Shown: piece by piece, positions 9,684-16,660 of the stretch
Numbering within the stretch: the stretch's first letter is position 1
Layout: each line of letters starts with the position of its first letter
DNA from: a virus
Taxonomy: Duplodnaviria; Heunggongvirae; Uroviricota; Caudoviricetes
DNA length: 16,660 bases
Strand: one strand, 5' to 3'
IMG/VR virus record: IMGVR_UViG_2728369188_000006
Span: 1 to 16,660 of that record
The notes under the pieces: generated by a model
Seen by the model: only the letters and a program-made list of their open reading frames with translations
The model's database searches: none
What the model was told of the DNA's origin: nothing
Translations under genes and position numbers: made by a program

Positions 9684-10725
9684 ACAGGTTAGCGTTTGGG
9701 TTTTGTTGTTGGGGAGCTGTTTTTATAGGCGCTCCCAGGTTTTTAGTAAACCACTCAACGACTCTGTTTATAATAATTGGCTGATACCATGTCTTATCGC
9801 CATGCTCGGCCCCTTCTACCAGCACGTACTCAGCGTTATCGCCGTTCTTCTTCAACATCCTGAATAGTTTGGCGCTTTGCTCAGGTGAAACCAGAGTGTC
9901 TTTGCTACCATGCATAATAAGAAATGGGGGTTTTACTCCTTTCATATGTCCGATTGGACTGGCGTTTAGCGCTTTTTCTTTTGACGCTGTGATGGGGGCT
10001 CCCGCAAAATTTCTGAATGCAGGGCCATTGATCATTAAGGCTTCGGTTACGGCAGGAGAGCGATGAACCTCCTGCACTGATTCAGGGAACCCCTCGCCAA
10101 TATTCAACAAGTCAGAAATCCCATAAAGTGTGGCAACTGCCTGAACATCTGAGGATTGCTGAAGAAAGTCACCTTTATCAAAGGTTTTGTCACCATTTGT
10201 AGTTCCCATCATCTGAGCAAGCCATCCACCGGCAGAGTCACCCAGAACTCCGATTCTTTGAGGATCAATCCCATAATTGCTGGCATGCTCTCTCAGGTAA
10301 CGTATTGCAGCTTTTCCATCCTCAACTGGTGCTGGAAATGTATCAGGAATTGTTCTGTATTCTACAGCGGCCACAACAAAACCAGCTTCTGCCAGAGCCA
10401 TTCTCATTTCAATAAATTTGTCATGTTCAGAAGACATGAATCCGCCGCCGGGATAATAAATAATGGCTGGTTTTAAATCATTTGTTCGCGGGACAAGAAC
10501 TGACATGTGAAGCTGTCTGACAGAACGAGTTCCTTTTATCTGGGAATAAACAACATCACCAATGAGATCGACTTGGTTTCTGGTCGGTGAAACACTAATG
10601 ATATCTGCACCCGGGGTGTAACCAGGAAGATTAGTCTGGACAGGTGTTGCACAACTCCCGACCGACATGGCCATTGACATACCATACAATAGTGTTGCAG
10701 ATGATAATATCTTGTTAATTTTCAT
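9682..10725 (-). CDS. Secreted, probably lipoprotein, alpha/beta-hydrolase esterase/lipase (hormone-sensitive-lipase-like family IV), 347 aa
   Basis: Contains PGGGF (HGGG-type oxyanion region), the GDSAGG nucleophile elbow, and downstream Asp (HGSKDTLV) and His (GAEHGD) candidates in canonical order. The N-terminus MKINKILSSATLLYGMSMAMSVGSC looks like a signal peptide with a lipobox-like Cys. Confidence 0.8.
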   Translation of the reverse strand: MKINKILSSATLLYGMSMAMSVGSCATPVQTNLPGYTPGADIISVSPTRNQVDLIGDVVYSQIKGTRSVRQLHMSVLVPRTNDLKPAIIYYPGGGFMSSEHDKFIEMRMALAEAGFVVAAVEYRTIPDTFPAPVEDGKAAIRYLREHASNYGIDPQRIGVLGDSAGGWLAQMMGTTNGDKTFDKGDFLQQSSDVQAVATLYGISDLLNIGEGFPESVQEVHRSPAVTEALMINGPAFRNFAGAPITASKEKALNASPIGHMKGVKPPFLIMHGSKDTLVSPEQSAKLFRMLKKNGDNAEYVLVEGAEHGDKTWYQPIIINRVVEWFTKNLGAPIKTAPQQQNPNANL

Positions 10726-11023
10726 GTTTTACATGCCTTGACTTATCGGATGAAATTCTCTTACTGAATTTAACGGCAGTTTAATAGCCGTACAACTCGT
10801 GGTAGCCAGGGAAATATCCCAGTCGTGGTTAAGGTTGTACTTGACGGCTATTATTTCAACAATGCTTAAAGTGAGAGCTTAAGGTTATGCGTATGTTTTA
10901 CAGTCCGAGTAGATTCTGACCAATAGCTTCTTTGTATAATTCTGTCAGAAATAAATCTTGGCTTGCATGAAGTTTGAGACCTTATCTTGTTTGATTATGA
11001 ATAATCAATTCGCCATAATTGTA

Positions 11024-11050
11024 TCACCGGAGCCTGAACAACTCCGGTGA
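11024..11050 (+). other. Perfect 9-bp inverted repeat hairpin (TCACCGGAG / CTCCGGTGA, 9-nt loop) in the cargo-nin intergenic region
   Basis: Seen directly in the sequence. No strong T-tract follows, so function (terminator, processing or operator site) is unknown. Confidence 0.3.
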
Positions 11051-11172
11051 CTTCTGCGCTAAACGGGGACGTTTATGCGCACACACAATCCAAACTCTCT
11101 TCTCCCTTCACAGATGCAGAAATGCACCTGCGTTTTTTTGCATCCAGCGTCTGACCTCTGTGGAGGTGAAGC

Positions 11173-11628
11173 GTGAACCTACCACAAGATGGCATCAAAC
11201 TGCATCGCGGTAACTTCATCGCTATCGGCCAGCAGATCCAGCCTTATCTGGAGGACGGAAAATGCTTTCGCATGGTGCTTAAACCGTGGCGTGAGAAACG
11301 CAGTCTTTCCCAGAATGCACTCAGCCATATGTGGTACAGCGAAATCAGTGAATACCTCATCAGCAGGGGGAAATCGTTCGCTACCGCAGCATGGGTAAAA
11401 GATGCTCTCAAACACACATACCTCGGTTATGAAACCAAGGACCTGGTTGATGTCGTAACCGGCGAAATCACTACTATCCAGTCGTTACGCCATACCTCCG
11501 ATCTTGATACCGGAGAGATGTATGTCTTCCTGTGTAAGGTTGAAGCCTGGGCGATGAATATTGGCTGCCACCTGACTATTCCGCAGAGCTGCGAGTTCCA
11601 GCTGCTGCGCGACAAGCAGGAGGCGTAA
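11173..11628 (+). CDS. ybcN: NinB/Orf-family protein (YbcN-like), 151 aa
   Basis: GTG start with a GGAGGTGA ribosome-binding site. The protein [15 protein letters not shown]...[20 protein letters not shown]... matches what I recall of DLP12 YbcN and the NinB motif (RSLDQN...W). Its stop overlaps the ninE start. Confidence 0.8.
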
Positions 11629-11798
11629 TGGCTACACCGCTTATTCGTGTCATGAACGGACACATCTACAAAGTACCAAATCGTCGTAAGCGTAAACCTG
11701 AGCTGAAGCCATCCGAAATACCAACACTGCTCGGGTATACCGCCAGCCTGGTTGATAAAAAATGGTTGCGACTGGCAGCAAGGAGGAATCATGGCTGA
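11628..11798 (+). CDS. ninE: NinE-like small protein, 56 aa
   Basis: Not in the ORF track (under 60 aa). ATG at 11628 overlaps the ybcN stop (TAATG). The translation [56 protein letters not shown] matches DLP12 NinE as I recall it. Confidence 0.7.
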   Translation: MATPLIRVMNGHIYKVPNRRKRKPELKPSEIPTLLGYTASLVDKKWLRLAARRNHG

Positions 11799-12081
11799 TT
11801 TAAGAAAAGCAGCGCGTGGTCGGGAATGCCAGGTAAGAATCCCTGGCGTATGTAATGGCAATCCTGAAACGTCAGTACTGGCACATATCCGGCTGGCTGG
11901 ATTGTGCGGTACCGGTATCAAACCGCCAGACCTGATTGCCACCATTGCATGTTCTGCCTGCCACGACGAAATCGACCGTCGCACGCATTTTGTTGACGCT
12001 GGATATGCAAAAGAATGCGCGCTGGAAGGTATGGCGAGAACACAGGTTATCTGGTTGAAAGAGGGGGTTATTGAGGCGTGA
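11791..12081 (+). CDS. ybcO: YbcO-like DUF1364 putative nuclease (Cys-rich metal-binding), 96 aa
   Basis: The likely start is the ATG at 11791 ([10 protein letters not shown]...), preceded by AGGAGG, not the track's 11752. CxxxxxC...CxxC cysteines are present. The stop overlaps the rusA start. Confidence 0.8.
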
Positions 12082-12440
12082 ATACCTACAGCATCACATT
12101 ACCCTGGCCTCCGAGCAATAATCGCTATTACCGCCATAATCGTGGGCGCACGCACGTCAGCGCAGAGGGGCAGGCATACTGCGATAACGTCGCCCGAATC
12201 ATTAAAAACGCAATGCTGGATATCGGCTTGGCTATGCCAGTGAAAATCAGCATTGAGTGCCACATGCCGGATCGCCGTCGCCGTGACCTTGATAATCTGC
12301 AAAAGGCCGCTTTTGACGCACTCACCAAAGCAGGTTTCTGGCTGGATGATGCTCAGGTCGTTGATTACCGCGTTGTGAAGATGCCCGTTACCAAAGGTGG
12401 GAAGCTGGAGCTGACTATCACTGAACTGGGAGATGAATGA
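12078..12440 (+). CDS. rusA: RusA Holliday-junction resolvase, 120 aa
   Basis: [34 protein letters not shown]...[32 protein letters not shown]... is near-identical to E. coli RusA as I recall it. Confidence 0.9.
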
Positions 12441-12577
12441 TGTTTGAGTCTTATATGGCAGAGCGTCTTCGCCGCCGCTGGGTGCGCCTGCGCTTATATC
12501 GTTTTCCTGGTTCTGTTTTGACCGATTACCGAATACTGAAGAATTACGCCAAAACCCTGACAGGAGCAGGAGTATGA
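12437..12577 (+). CDS. ylcG: YlcG-like small prophage protein, 46 aa
   Basis: Not in the ORF track. ATG at 12437 overlaps the rusA stop (GAATGATG). Translation is [46 protein letters not shown]; its position between rusA and Q matches DLP12 order. Confidence 0.55.
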
Positions 12578-12662
12578 AGTCAGAGATAACAATCAACTAA
12601 TACTGTTTTGTTGATTTTTGCTTGTAATTGGCGTTCTGGTCTGATTTTTGTGGAGTAAGTTG

Positions 12663-13046
12663 ATGCGTGATATTCAGATGGTTCTTGAGCGTTGGGGAGC
12701 GTGGGCGGCTAATAATCATGAAGATGTGACCTGGTCGTCCGTTGCCGCCGGTTTTAAGGGATTAATTCCTTCAAAAGTAAAATCTCGCCCGCAATGTTGT
12801 GACGATGACGCGATGATCATTTGCGGGTGCATGGCCCGTCTGAAAAAGAACAACAGCGATTTACACGATTTATTAGTAGATTATTATGTATGTGGTATGA
12901 CATTCATGTCACTGGCAAGTAAGCATTGCTGCTCGGATGGTTATATCGGGAAAAGGTTACAGAAGGCTGAGGGCATAATTGAAGGGATGTTAATGGCATT
13001 AGATATCCGGTTAGATATGGATATCGTTGCTAATAATTCTAATTGA
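12663..13046 (+). CDS. quuD: Late-gene antiterminator Q (QuuD-like), 127 aa
   Basis: ATG at 12663 with a GGAG ribosome-binding site; the track's 12648 start is a TTG extension. [24 protein letters not shown]...[18 protein letters not shown]... matches DLP12 QuuD as I recall it, with a Cys-rich zinc-binding region. Confidence 0.85.
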
Positions 13047-13067
13047 TATGCAATTGTTTACTAAAAG

Positions 13068-13096
13068 TTATTAAAAATGGGGCGTGGAAACGCCCC
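13068..13096 (-). terminator. Putative terminator hairpin for minus-strand (porin) transcription
   Basis: GGGGCGT-GGAA-ACGCCCC stem-loop (13079-13096). On the minus strand it is followed by ATTTTTAATAA (plus 13068-13078). It lies about 140-170 nt downstream of the porin stop. Confidence 0.4.
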
Positions 13097-13183
13097 CAAA
13101 ATAAAGGGTAATATATAACAGAAGGTTTATATAGTAAGAAGCAAGGTAGTGCTTCTAAAGGAAGTGGCTTGAGGGCTCCACTT

Positions 13184-13226
13184 ATATGTTGCGGAGGCAA
13201 AGCCTCCCGCAACATATCTTTTTCGT
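13184..13226 (+). terminator. Putative tR'-like intrinsic terminator downstream of Q
   Basis: About 15-bp stem ATATGTTGCGGAGGC / GCCTCC(C)GCAACATAT with a small loop and one bulged C, followed by CTTTTTCG on the plus strand. Its position roughly 140-180 nt after Q is where lambdoid phages place tR'. Confidence 0.5.
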
Positions 13227-13234
13227 AAGTCAGA

Positions 13235-14100
13235 TTAGAACTGATAAACCAGACCTACAGCGACGATGTCGTCGGTATCAATACCAGCTGTTTTGGTAAA
13301 CTTACTATCGTCAATTAAGTTGATTTTGTAATCAACAAAAGTGGACATGTTTTTATTAAAGTAGTAAGTAGCACCGACATCGACATACTTGACTAAGTCT
13401 CGGTCACCATGAACACCAAGGTCTTTACCTTTTGACTGAAGGTAAGCAACAGATGGTCGCAGACCGAAGTCAAACTGATATTGTGCTACTGCTTCAAAGT
13501 TTTGTGCTTTGTTTGCAATATGGTTATTACCAAAAACGGTCATATTCTGAGTTTCAGAATATGTGGTAGCCAGATAGATATTGTTCGCATCATATTTCAG
13601 GCCTGCAGCCCATACTTCCGCATTTTTGCCGGAGGCATTGAATTTGCTCTTACCATAGGCGACCTGACCGTCAGTGCGATCTGATTTAGCATAGGTTGCA
13701 CCCACGCCGAATCCTTCATACTCATAAGTAGTGGAGAAACCGAAACCATCACCATTGGCTTCAGTTACGTCAGTGCGGTCATTTTTACCCTGATACTGAG
13801 CAGCAAAGTTCAGGCCATCGACCAGACCAAAGAAGTCGTTGTTACGATAAGTTGCAACACCAGTAGTGCGACCAGTCATGAACACATCTGTTTGGGTCCA
13901 GGTATCACCACCGAATTCTGGCAGGACGTCAGTCCACGCACCGATGTCGTATGCTACACCGTAGTTACGGCCGTAATCGATTGAGCCGTAATCACCAAAT
14001 TTCAGGCCTGCAAATGCAAGACGGGTTTTGTCTTTGGAAGAACCTTGAGATTCAGCACGGTTGCCTTTGAATTCATATTCCCACTGACCGAAACCAGTCA
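13235..14100 (-). CDS. nmpC: NmpC/Lc/OmpC-family general porin, partial: C-terminal about 288 aa, 5' end runs into the assembly gap
   Basis: The translation from ...[48 protein letters not shown]... to the ...VAVGLVYQF terminal Phe motif aligns with OmpC/NmpC. The signal peptide and first roughly 70 residues are not present before the N-run. The track's extension to 14218 is antisense translation of stf and is not porin. Confidence 0.9.
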
Positions 14101-14110
14101 NNNNNNNNNN
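14101..14110. other. Assembly gap (10 N) joining two non-contiguous gene fragments
   Basis: A run of n at 14101-14110. The porin gene (minus) is cut mid-ORF on the left and the stf gene (plus) is cut mid-ORF on the right. Confidence 0.95.
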
Positions 14111-14111
14111 C

Positions 14112-15932
14112 TCCAGACCAGGTACGCTGAATGATTTTCTCGGTGCCATGACGGAAGATGATGTCATGCCGGAGGCATTGCGTCGTTTTGAGGTAATGGT
14201 GGAGGATGTGGCACGCAACGCTGAAGCCGCCTCTCAGAGCGCAGCGGCAGCAAAGAAATCAGAAACAGCAGCGGCATCGTCCAGGAACGCGGCGAAAACA
14301 TCAGAGACGAATGCAGGTAACAGCGCGAAAGCGGCAGCTTCTTCAAAAACAGCCGCACAAAACGCAGCAACAGCGGCAGAACGTTCAGAGACAAATGCCC
14401 GTGCGTCAGAAGAAGCCTCCGCAGACAGTGAAGAGGCTTCCCGCCGTAATGCAGAGTCAGCCGCTGAAAATGCCGGAGTCGCCACCACAAAAGCGCGGGA
14501 GGCTGCAGCAGACGCAACAAAGGCCGGGCAGAAAAAGGATGAGGCTCTGTCGGCAGCGACACGAGCTGAAAAGGCGGCAGACCGCGCAGAAGCCGCAGCG
14601 GAAGTGACTGCAGAGCCCTATGCGAATATAGTGCCGCCGCTGCCTGATGTGTGGATACCGTTTAACGATTCACTGGATATGATTGCGGGTTTTTCTCCGG
14701 GCTATAAAAAAATAGCTATTGGTGACGATGTGGTTCAGGTCGCCAGTGATAAACAGGTTAATTTCAGTCGCGCATCAACGGCAACATATATCAACAAATC
14801 TGGCGAACTGAAAACGGCGGAAATTAATGAGCCGCGATTTGAGTGTGATGGCCTGCTTATTGAGGGACAAAGAACGAACTACATGCTCAATTCGGAAAGT
14901 CCAGCCAGCTGGGGGAAGTCATCAAACATGGATGTGCCCGAAACCGGGACGGATAGTTTTGGTTTTACTTATGGAAAGTTTGTCTGCAACGATTCTCTGG
15001 TTGGGCAAACTTCGGCTATTAATATGGCATCAATTGCTGCAACAAAGTCAGTTGATGTCTCAGGCGATAACAAGTACGTGACAACCTCATGCCGTTTTAA
15101 AACAGAACGACAGGTAAGGTTACGTATACGGTTTGATAAGTATGATGGTAGTGCAACAACTTTTCTTGGCGATGCGTACATTGATACGCAAACGCTTGAA
15201 ATTAATATGACAGGTGGTGCTGCCGGCAGAATTACGGCACGAGTCAGGAAGGATAAGACCACGGGCTGGATTTTTGCAGAGGCAACGATTCAGGCAATTG
15301 ATGGTGAGTTAAAAATAGGCTCTCAGATACAGTATTCTCCTGAGCAGGGTGGGGCAACAGTATCTGGTGACTATATTTATCTTGCCACCCCACAAGTAGA
15401 GAATGGGCCGTGTGTATCATCATTTATTATTTCAGGAGGCAGCGCAACGACAAGAGCCAGTGATTTGGTTAGTATCCCCACCAGAAATAATCTTTATAAG
15501 TTACCATTTACTTTTTTACTTGAGATTCATAAAAACTGGGATATTGCACCAAACGCCGCACCCCGCGTGTGGGATATAGCAGCAGCCAATACCGGGCAAT
15601 CAGCAATTGCAGCAATCAACAGAGGTAGTGGTAAGTTATATATGAGTCTGTCAAACCCTTCAGGCTCGTATGTTAATAGCGCAGCGACAGATGTATTTGC
15701 AGAGAAAACCACATTTGGATGTATTGCAAAAGCTGATGGTCACTTTCATGTGGTGACAAATGGTAAAGCGGTTAATGAAGTTTATTGTGAATATAATGGC
15801 GTGACCGCTGATAAAAATATCCGATTTGGAGGGCAGACGAATACTGGAGAACGACATCTGTTTGGCCATATTCGCAATTTCCGCATATGGCATAAAGAAT
15901 TAAATGACAGGCAATTAAAAGAGGTCGTATGA
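14112..15932 (+). CDS. stf: Side tail fibre protein (lambda Stf-like), 5'-truncated by the gap, with a C-terminal LamG/ConA-like putative receptor-binding domain
   Basis: The frame is open from the gap (SRPGTLNDFLGAMTEDDVMPEALRRFEVMVEDVARNA), which aligns with an internal segment of lambda Stf (PGTLNDFLCAMTEDDARPEVLRRLELMVEEVARNA). An Ala/Ser/Thr-rich repeat region follows (KKSETAAASS, KTSETNAGNS, ERSETNARAS). The C-terminus ...RFGGQTNTGERHLFGHIRNFRIWHKELNDRQLKEVV looks like the end of a laminin-G/concanavalin-like lectin fold. Confidence 0.85.
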   Translation, partial: SRPGTLNDFLGAMTEDDVMPEALRRFEVMVEDVARNAEAASQSAAAAKKSETAAASSRNAAKTSETNAGNSAKAAASSKTAAQNAATAAERSETNARASEEASADSEEASRRNAESAAENAGVATTKAREAAADATKAGQKKDEALSAATRAEKAADRAEAAAEVTAEPYANIVPPLPDVWIPFNDSLDMIAGFSPGYKKIAIGDDVVQVASDKQVNFSRASTATYINKSGELKTAEINEPRFECDGLLIEGQRTNYMLNSESPASWGKSSNMDVPETGTDSFGFTYGKFVCNDSLVGQTSAINMASIAATKSVDVSGDNKYVTTSCRFKTERQVRLRIRFDKYDGSATTFLGDAYIDTQTLEINMTGGAAGRITARVRKDKTTGWIFAEATIQAIDGELKIGSQIQYSPEQGGATVSGDYIYLATPQVENGPCVSSFIISGGSATTRASDLVSIPTRNNLYKLPFTFLLEIHKNWDIAPNAAPRVWDIAAANTGQSAIAAINRGSGKLYMSLSNPSGSYVNSAATDVFAEKTTFGCIAKADGHFHVVTNGKAVNEVYCEYNGVTADKNIRFGGQTNTGERHLFGHIRNFRIWHKELNDRQLKEVV

Positions 15933-16207
15933 AAGATTTAACTTTGAAGTTTCATGACAAACTGCAGTTTAAGGCCTTCCTGTCATCTCTTGGCTGGGCG
16001 GAAGATGAAGACCTCCAGAATAAACTGTTAGTTGATGAAATTGGTTTCACCTACACAGAAACAGGGGTAACAGAAGAGGGAGAACCTGTCTGTATCCGGA
16101 ATGATGGTTATTTTGTCAACATTCGCATTCTTGATGACTTGTTTGATGTTTCTGTATTCTCTGATTATGTCGTGGAGCTGGAAACACCGCTTCGGGAATG
16201 GAGCTGA
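15929..16207 (+). CDS. Hypothetical small acidic protein translationally coupled to stf (possible fibre chaperone or accessory), 92 aa
   Basis: Its start overlaps the stf stop (ATGA). I see no resemblance to lambda-type Tfa as I recall it. The functional guess rests on position only. Confidence 0.45.
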   Translation: MKDLTLKFHDKLQFKAFLSSLGWAEDEDLQNKLLVDEIGFTYTETGVTEEGEPVCIRNDGYFVNIRILDDLFDVSVFSDYVVELETPLREWS

Positions 16208-16219
16208 AAGGAGGAAATA

Positions 16220-16660
16220 ATGGATATAAGCCCCTTACTTCATGCACTTTGTGCTGTGGCTGCGCAGATACTGGTTGGTCTTTTTACCGGAAACTGGGCT
16301 TACGGAGCGATAGCCGGTTGTACGTTCTTCATTGCGCGTGAACATACCCAGGCAGAATATCGCTGGATTGAAATGTTCGGGCATGGCAAGCGAATGAATA
16401 TGCCGTGGTGGGGCGGTTTTGATCCGCGTGCTTGGGATGTGGCAAGCCTGATGGATTTTGCTGTGCCGGTGGTGGCGTGTCTGCTGGTCTGGCTGTTGGT
16501 TAATCGTGGGCGAAAAAAGGTGAGCTGTATATGCAACGGAGGAAGAAACCCCGTTGCTGGAAGCCAGGAAAAAGTATCGGGTGTTGCTGTCCTCGGATGT
16601 TGTGCTAATTGGGTGATAACAGATCCTGTGTATGGGAGTTTCCCTTTTTGCGTGCGTTGA
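16220..16660 (+). CDS. Hypothetical membrane protein (at least two predicted TM helices), 146 aa; C-terminal 45 residues look atypical
   Basis: Strong ribosome-binding site (AAGGAGG, 6 nt before the ATG). There are hydrophobic segments at about residues 5-35 and 75-95. The tail after RGRKK is Cys/Gly-rich and ends exactly at the window edge, so the 3' end is uncertain. Confidence 0.45.
   Translation: MDISPLLHALCAVAAQILVGLFTGNWAYGAIAGCTFFIAREHTQAEYRWIEMFGHGKRMNMPWWGGFDPRAWDVASLMDFAVPVVACLLVWLLVNRGRKKVSCICNGGRNPVAGSQEKVSGVAVLGCCANWVITDPVYGSFPFCVR

Follow-up and report, generated by a model that had tools for sequence, protein, structure and literature searches.

The window analysed here is the whole 16,660-nucleotide stretch of the viral record IMGVR_UViG_2728369188_000006 (IMG/VR, positions 1 to 16,660). 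Near its 3' end it carries the gene of a side (lateral) tail fibre of the phage 21 type, immediately followed by an open reading frame (ORF) for an acidic protein of 92 amino acids (aa). We find that this small protein is an obligate genomic partner of the distal part, or tip, of the fibre, and that the tip itself is an exchangeable cassette composed of two modules, one homologous to the head-spike fibre of RcGTA and one resembling laminin-G/concanavalin A-type (LamG/ConA-like) domains. A first-pass annotation of the window had described a lambda Stf-like fibre with a LamG/ConA-like tip, followed by a coupled small ORF that did not resemble Tfa, the tail-fibre assembly protein of lambda. On the evidence laid out below, we think it probable that the two genes encode a glycan-binding lateral fibre together with a dedicated partner that either helps it to assemble or fold or serves as its stoichiometric accessory subunit, preserved here in a decayed prophage.

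The association between tip and small protein was examined from both sides in a sample of about 170 loci, which covers lambdoid, T1-like, T5-like, Dhillonvirus and metagenomic phages. Starting from the tip, we collected 80 IMG/VR loci with 71-100% tip identity, and every intact tip directly precedes a small-ORF homologue that is 50-100% identical; only four loci depart from this, two of them with the tip interrupted by an IS66 insertion and two cut off at a contig end. Starting from the small protein, we obtained eight E. coli loci, four of which lie in a non-lambdoid backbone with an unrelated shaft, and 80 further metagenomic loci, which were retrieved with a six-sequence sub-alignment of the small protein and form a clade only ~30% identical to the window protein. 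The ORF immediately upstream of the small ORF gave a match to the tip profile in all 88 loci (examples range from E 1e-29 to 1e-51). The possibility raised in the first-pass annotation, that the 92-aa ORF might not co-occur with this type of tip, can thus be set aside, as the ORF accompanies the tip in every informative locus. The partner is also carried by 147 records of isolated phages, where it is always annotated as hypothetical and always lies beside a tail fibre gene. These carriers include lambdoid phages (21, mEp460, ev243), Drexlerviridae, T5-like phages and Dhillonvirus, and they comprise both lytic and temperate phages.

The two genes are joined in a fixed way. In the window, both ORFs are real and lie on the + strand as first annotated (14148-15932, 594 aa, and 15929-16207, 92 aa), and they overlap at the stop codon of the fibre through an ATGA at 15929-15932. 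Among 107 distinct pairs, the fibre stop and the start of the small ORF lie within ±3 nucleotides (nt) of each other in all 107. The charges of the two products are likewise regular: the last 154 residues of the fibre are basic in 106 of the 107 pairs, with a median isoelectric point (pI) of 9.6 (9.2 for the window fibre), and the pI of the partner falls between 4.05 and 4.80 in every pair. In the metagenomic clade, identity among partners is 79-100%, compared with 18-100% for the LamG-like domain and 31-100% for the middle domain, and the identities of the partner and of the LamG-like domain are not correlated (r ~0.07). Because it is conserved while the tip diversifies, the partner behaves like a conserved factor rather than a determinant of specificity.

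The ORF at 14148-15932 corresponds to residues 93-686 of the 686-aa side tail fibre of phage 21 at ~99% identity; in the alignment with CPT_21_22, which extends over residues 94-686 of the latter, 586 of 593 positions are identical. The ORF is not the whole fibre gene, which is cut at its 5' side by a run of ten Ns, a point that the first-pass annotation had missed. Its ATG at 14148 is an internal methionine (residue 93 of 686) and not the gene start, because the match to PF08400 covers only positions 93-131 of the 134 in the profile and the alignment with the phage 21 fibre covers only residues 94-686. The frame remains open upstream of this ATG up to the N-run and reads SRPGTLNDFLGA-M, an in-frame SRPGTLNDFLGAM precedes the ATG, and the residues of the upstream frame agree with the consensus of full-length fibres at the same position. 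FDAARGOS_536 has an allele that matches the window at 100% identity downstream of the gap, and there the ORF is intact, with 686 aa. In Ecol_448, the closest complete genome, the left flank of the gap corresponds to positions 6001-7101 of the locus and the right flank to 8561-8943; the flanks are ~1.46 kb apart, and the interval holds the 5' end of the porin gene, an IS1, a J fragment and stf codons 1-82. The adjacency of porin and stf in the window is a product of a scaffold join or of masking.

A frameshifted pseudogene was first suspected from the way in which RefSeq splits this gene, and was excluded by the identical allele, which is one continuous 686-aa ORF. PGAP/RefSeq divides the intact 686-aa stf (8315-10243 in locus L001, 4762-6822 in locus L003) into two features, a "prophage tail fiber N-terminal domain" pseudogene and a "phage head spike fiber domain-containing protein". 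Since the reading frame is continuous, this split is an annotation artefact, and the fibre is systematically mis-annotated in many E. coli genomes.

The fibre's N-terminal part is Stf-like, as the first-pass annotation had recognised: the start of the ORF matches PF08400 above the gathering score (38.1 versus 26.6 bits), and residues 1-160 match several tail-fibre PHROGs. The full PF08400 domain is found in phage 21 and in the 100%-identical allele of L003, and PF08400 was matched in 11 of 16 relatives. The shaft that follows is a low-complexity stretch with recurring SET(N)A motifs, and such shafts are found in lambdoid Stf proteins. The description of a repeat shaft holds for these motifs and not for the DNA, in which TRF found no tandem repeat. 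At the end of the shaft lies a conserved junction, PLPDVWIPFNDSLDM, whose columns do not vary among 16 fibres that differ in their N-termini (PF08400, PF12571, PF03406). Homology to a non-lambdoid fibre begins exactly at this junction. For these two reasons the junction marks the start of the exchangeable tip cassette, and PDVWIPF was used as the search pattern for tip loci. The window fibre has no match to Phage_fiber_2 (PF03406) and no gp37-like tip.

The distal 300 residues or so had been proposed to be lectin-like. This applies to their C-terminal part, whereas about half of them belongs to a second module that is homologous to the RcGTA head-spike fibre. The NCBIfam profile NF048003 (GTA_spike_fiber) matches residues 237-437 over profile positions 1-181 of 182 with 56.1 bits against a cutoff of 36, and a phmmer search of PDB sequences aligned fibre residues 205-451 with Rcc01080 (6tb9_F3) at E 1.1e-9. 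Tagged Rcc01080 binds capsulated cells far better than capsule-less ones and is a binder of capsular polysaccharide (PMC10218006). Its PDB structure resolves only residues 2-10 (PMC7296036), so that Rcc01080 gives no experimental fold for comparison. Two E. coli prophage loci, L008 and L009, carry the same small protein and an identical LamG-like domain while their middle domains are very different (tip identity to the window of 48% and 72%, respectively), which points to domain-level mosaicism within the tip.

For the C-terminal module, the LamG/ConA-like assignment of the first-pass annotation stood, and no search assigned it to another fold. On the isolated C-terminal 180 aa, PF13385 reaches 27.7 bits (gathering score 27.6); on longer queries and the full ORF it reaches 25.0-25.7 bits. 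The family is matched more clearly in relatives, with 23 of 31 diverse ones giving a match (best E 7e-12) and a metagenomic locus, L093, reaching 37 bits. The closing motif FGHIRNFRIWHKELNDRQL is the best-conserved part of the LamG-like domain and lies within the Laminin_G_3 match. Profile searches with the C-terminal domain against PDB sequences returned no LamG chain. An AlphaFold2 (AF2) model of the tip (435 aa) is all-beta with a mean predicted local distance difference test score (pLDDT) of 51.7, built on an alignment of 16 sequences that are all close E. coli relatives. Foldseek searches with this low-confidence model returned ConA-like modules at E ~1e-4 to 1e-3 and a template-modelling (TM) score of ~0.25, namely the lectin-like subdomain of botulinum neurotoxin (BoNT) Hc, CBM40, neurexin LNS and pentraxin. 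These matches are consistent with a ConA-like fold of the modelled tip, without proving it.

The 92-aa protein matches only two PHROGs, phrog_1361 and phrog_18574, both of "unknown function". It is acidic (pI 4.17) and gives no match to the Tfa family Caudo_TAP (PF02413) even at E ≤ 1, in agreement with the initial view that it is not a lambda-type Tfa. No match was obtained in Pfam, NCBIfam, PADLOC or PDB sequences, and no signal peptide or transmembrane segment was found. The AF2 model is confident (pLDDT 90, predicted TM score 0.73), with the order beta-alpha-alpha-beta4. Among solved structures the model has no significant relative (best E 0.04); its fold relatives are uncharacterised proteins of 80-100 aa from uncultured tailed phages, with TM scores of 0.65-0.72. 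An exhaustive profile search among 1.84 billion proteins yielded 77 representatives of the small protein at E ≤ 1e-3, and 25 divergent members retain the motifs MKDLxLKF, DxIG, GY(F/H)VN(I/L)R and, at the C-terminus, P.R.W.

How the two proteins might work together can be sketched as follows. In an intact phage, the fibre would attach to the tail tip through its PF08400 domain and be extended by the low-complexity, presumably helical shaft, and the exchangeable cassette would end it, from PLPDVWIPF onward, with the RcGTA-spike-like domain and then the basic LamG/ConA-like beta-sandwich. The tip, which is unlike that of lambda Stf, would bind a surface glycan (O-antigen, lipopolysaccharide or capsule) reversibly as the primary adsorption step. 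For recognition, the 92-aa partner would rely not on the variable receptor surface but on strands that are conserved in the basic C-terminal domain (TRAxD...N..Y, RNFRIWH..L..Q), and would in this way fill the role of Tfa for this fibre while being unrelated to Tfa.

We infer a glycan receptor from the homology to a capsule-binding protein, from the lectin-type superfamily of the C-terminal domain and from the general view of lateral fibres in these siphoviruses. In the siphovirus groups with this cassette, the lateral fibres are regarded as O-antigen binders that can be dispensed with on rough K-12 (PMC8594841), and the same has been suggested for Ur-lambda Stf (PMC11990801). An assembly or accessory role of the partner is suggested by the tight coupling, the complementary charges, the presence in lytic and temperate carriers alike, and the finding that in phage 21 the canonical position downstream of stf is not occupied by a Tfa gene. 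An adhesin that contacts the receptor would be expected to vary with the tip, whereas a factor that recognises conserved elements would not, and the partner therefore fits the latter. A gp38-like adhesin role was also considered and judged unlikely, the small protein being far more conserved than the tip. Going further, phrog_1361/18574 might represent a previously unrecognised maturation or accessory class specific for LamG-tipped lateral fibres. Its members would serve four or more siphovirus lineages, would be required for fibre assembly, would attach to the basic edge strands that are conserved in the terminal domain, and would show no relation, in sequence or in fold, to Tfa, gp38, gp57A or the S74 chaperones. 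We offer this wider proposal tentatively, judging it slightly more apt to fail than to hold.

Several points weigh against a dedicated factor for a lectin-like tip. The LamG score of the window fibre itself is only at threshold, and the Foldseek matches are weak support because the tip model is poor. Co-occurrence can come from adjacency and linkage alone, and a complex of the two proteins is something that we infer. Searches of Pfam and of PDB sequences and folds detected no similarity of the 92-aa protein to any known chaperone. LamG-type domains usually fold without a dedicated chaperone. The gene of the RcGTA head-spike fibre is not known to have a comparable small neighbour, and the middle domain would therefore not need a partner. 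The genes rcc01081-01086 are capsule genes (PMC10218006).

Given the genes found around the pair in other loci, the small protein could be thought of as an adaptor that docks a second fibre onto the first. A short fibre with a Peptidase_S74 domain, an intramolecular chaperone, is encoded directly downstream of the small ORF in 85 of the 135 loci with enough sequence (e.g., L005 5341-6369, L052 5608-6606 and L093 4815-5813), in lambdoid as well as non-lambdoid backbones, and clades 1, 3 and 5 of the small protein are mostly associated with it. Such a layout may point to a branched fibre or to two fibres. Multi-protein lateral fibres have been described for T5-like and small siphoviruses (PMC8594841). 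A branched arrangement of this kind would mean that the phage 21 type, from which the S74 fibre is absent, lost the second fibre and kept the adaptor. We consider it unlikely, because the 50 loci without an S74 fibre, which include all of clades 0 (the phage 21 type and the window) and 2, keep the small ORF intact and coupled, and because the coupling is always to the upstream fibre and never to the downstream one. In the window stf itself there is no Peptidase_S74 (PF13884) domain; PF13884 is found only in the separate downstream fibre of related loci.

A catalytic function of the tip is a little harder still to reconcile with the data. The tip would then be an enzyme that cleaves or modifies surface polysaccharide through its ConA-like/glucanase or its GTA-like domain, and the small protein an inhibitor or immunity factor in the producing cell. 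The clan to which Pfam assigns PF13385 is indeed named "Concanavalin A-like lectin/glucanases", and enzyme-inhibitor pairs, too, can combine a small acidic protein of the cytoplasm with a basic domain. However, neither Pfam nor NCBIfam gave a match to a family of glycoside hydrolases or lyases, the nearest homologue that has been characterised is a binder and not an enzyme, and the Foldseek neighbours listed above are binding modules, all of which makes an enzymatic tip improbable. It is very improbable that the 92-aa ORF is an unrelated passenger (a moron, a regulator or a superinfection-exclusion factor) that hitch-hikes with the tip cassette in recombination: although its product has no known domain and it lies in a moron-rich region of lambdoid prophages, beside a small membrane protein and sitABCD, the ±3-nt stop/start junction is kept across ~30%-identical clades and in strictly lytic families, no signal peptide, transmembrane segment or PADLOC match points to such a role, and the small protein stays while its neighbours (the 97-aa protein, the S74 fibre) change.

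The sequences concerned are already known and abundant: phage 21 has been in laboratory use since the 1950s, and a single 90% cluster of fibre sequences has 2,232 members. Literature searches gave nothing specific on the phage 21 Stf tip, on LamG tail fibres or on the small ORF. We found no description of the two-module tip, the obligate partner or the spread of the cassette across families in the searchable literature, which leaves much uncovered. Neither the phage 21 genome announcement nor the phi21 receptor paper discusses the tip or the 92-aa protein, and the lambda-chimera papers make no mention of this tip or of an accessory. The first step of host recognition is governed by lateral tail fibres, which are also what is exchanged when phages or phage-derived delivery particles are retargeted. 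The tip cassette described here is very common in siphoviruses and prophages of E. coli and Salmonella. If a functional tip requires the partner, any chimeric fibre made from this cassette would have to bring the partner with it, and the small-protein family would deserve a functional name in place of "hypothetical protein". The window itself is mundane, a known phage gene that persists as a remnant beside the virulence-associated transporter sitABCD, and a fibre with a cognate downstream factor is a kind of system already familiar. The features of the fibre locus are collected in Table 1.

Table 1. Features of the fibre locus in the window; residue numbers count from the ATG at 14148.
Feature	Coordinates	Strand	Evidence and remarks
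10-N run	14101..14110	none	scaffold gap or masking; conceals the 5' ends of the porin (-) and fibre (+) genes
Partial coding sequence, phage-21-type side (lateral) tail fibre	14112..15932	+	frame open from the gap; phrog_1419 tail protein, E 2e-263
End of the prophage tail-fibre N-terminal (tail attachment) domain	14148..14264	+	PF08400, 38.1 bits; residues 1-39 vs profile 93-131/134
Ala/Ser/Thr/Glu/Asn-rich low-complexity shaft	14196..14621	+	residues 17-158; 73% A+S+T+E+N
Conserved junction PLPDVWIPFNDSLDM	14637..14681	+	residues 164-178; start of the tip module
Beta-rich module homologous to the RcGTA head-spike fibre	14760..15500	+	residues ~205-451
Laminin_G_3 / concanavalin-A-like beta-sandwich	15549..15914	+	residues 468-589; PF13385
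Coupling signal	15919..15932	+	AAGAGG Shine-Dalgarno at 15919-15924, then ATGA stop/start overlap at 15929-15932
92-aa acidic alpha/beta protein	15929..16207	+	phrog_1361 (unknown function), E 3.2e-42; residues 1-91/92
Homologue of the 97-aa membrane protein of phage 21 with two transmembrane segments	16220..16660	+	phrog_1443, E 7e-58

As a whole, the window is a decayed lambdoid (DLP12-like) E. coli prophage adjoining sitABCD. Its gene order is a split integrase, IS3-family fragments with an IS110-family transposase, O, P, an autotransporter, an alpha/beta hydrolase, the nin region with RusA and Q, the porin, the gap, stf, the 92-aa ORF, the homologue of the 97-aa protein and the 3' end of sitD. 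Beyond the fibre genes, no lysis, head or tail genes were found in the window. In phage 21 and FDAARGOS_536, stf lies downstream of J; this position within a tail cluster is not found in the window, where the porin is the upstream neighbour across the gap. What the window retains of the fibre genes is a prophage remnant, from which no fibre can be built on a tail.

Some of the other genes show signs of decay or insertion. The lambda-type integrase appears to be split into two parts on the - strand (1-492 and 588-1127), and the OmpC/NmpC-type porin (13235-14100, - strand) is without ~70 N-terminal residues. Fragments of an IS3-family transposase (1284-2132) adjoin the IS110-family transposase (2456-3532), the IS110-family copy interrupting the IS3-family fragments. 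Two genes are placed between P and the nin region, one for a 1302-aa intimin/invasin-like inverse autotransporter (5737-9645, + strand) in a stretch of lower GC content (0.38-0.46) and one for the alpha/beta hydrolase (9682-10725, - strand); at the same place in Ecol_448 the hydrolase is present and the adhesin absent.

Downstream of the fibre module, the phrog_1443 homologue has its stop codon changed from TGA to CGA at 16511, which extends it from 97 to 146 aa. The extended ORF reaches into the 3' end of sitD on the opposite strand, and RefSeq marks an identical copy as a pseudogene. The gene is absent from the non-lambdoid loci L004-L007 and is a neighbour in lambdoid contexts only, and the protein is probably not part of the fibre module. 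The iron/manganese transporter locus sitABCD lies directly downstream of the fibre cluster both in phage 21 (21967-25416, OL657228) and in the window remnant; because of this shared position in the phage and in a chromosomal remnant, the widespread chromosomal sit locus looks like cargo of the phage 21 type that was left behind. In the metagenomic siphovirus of locus L093, a gene just downstream of the fibre module (6015-7340, - strand) encodes an ApeA-like HEPN protein (PF18862 + PF18739), possibly a defence or counter-defence cargo at the fibre locus.

Among known systems, phage 21 (OL657228) is the closest to the window. Its fibre CPT_21_22 is followed by the hypothetical protein CPT_21_23, which is 97% identical to the 92-aa protein of the window, and the two share the gene order stf, 92-aa ORF, 97-aa membrane protein and sitDCBA. 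The window differs in that the first 92 codons of the fibre are missing from the ORF, J and the other tail genes are absent, and the third ORF has lost its stop. Lambda Stf/Tfa likewise has a PF08400 attachment domain, an Ala-rich shaft, a position after J and a small gene right after the fibre. However, the distal half of lambda Stf is unrelated to that of the phage-21-type fibre, which has no Phage_fiber_2/gp37-like tip, and lambda Tfa is about twice the size of the 92-aa protein, which is not a Caudo_TAP. Rcc01080 of RcGTA (GhsB; 6TB9 chain F3) is homologous over ~245 residues (E 1e-9). In contrast to the tail fibre described here, Rcc01080 sits as a single chain on a capsid pentamer, which anchors it, and, judged by the extent of the match, it is without a LamG-like C-terminal domain. 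The same cassette of tip and small ORF, with the same overlap, is found in the lateral fibres of T5-like phages, Drexlerviridae and Dhillonvirus (e.g., KarlBarth gp28/gp29 and the T5_ev219 locus); in these fibres the N-terminal anchors and the shafts are different, a further fibre gene often follows downstream, and the small ORF is annotated only as hypothetical. Finally, the Mu/P2-type Tfa, gp38 and gp57A of T4, and Peptidase_S74 share the logic proposed here for the 92-aa protein, namely that the distal tip depends on a factor whose coding sequence lies at or beyond the 3' end of the fibre gene. The 92-aa protein has no sequence or fold similarity to any of them and, in contrast to the gp38 adhesins, is better conserved than the tip that it accompanies.

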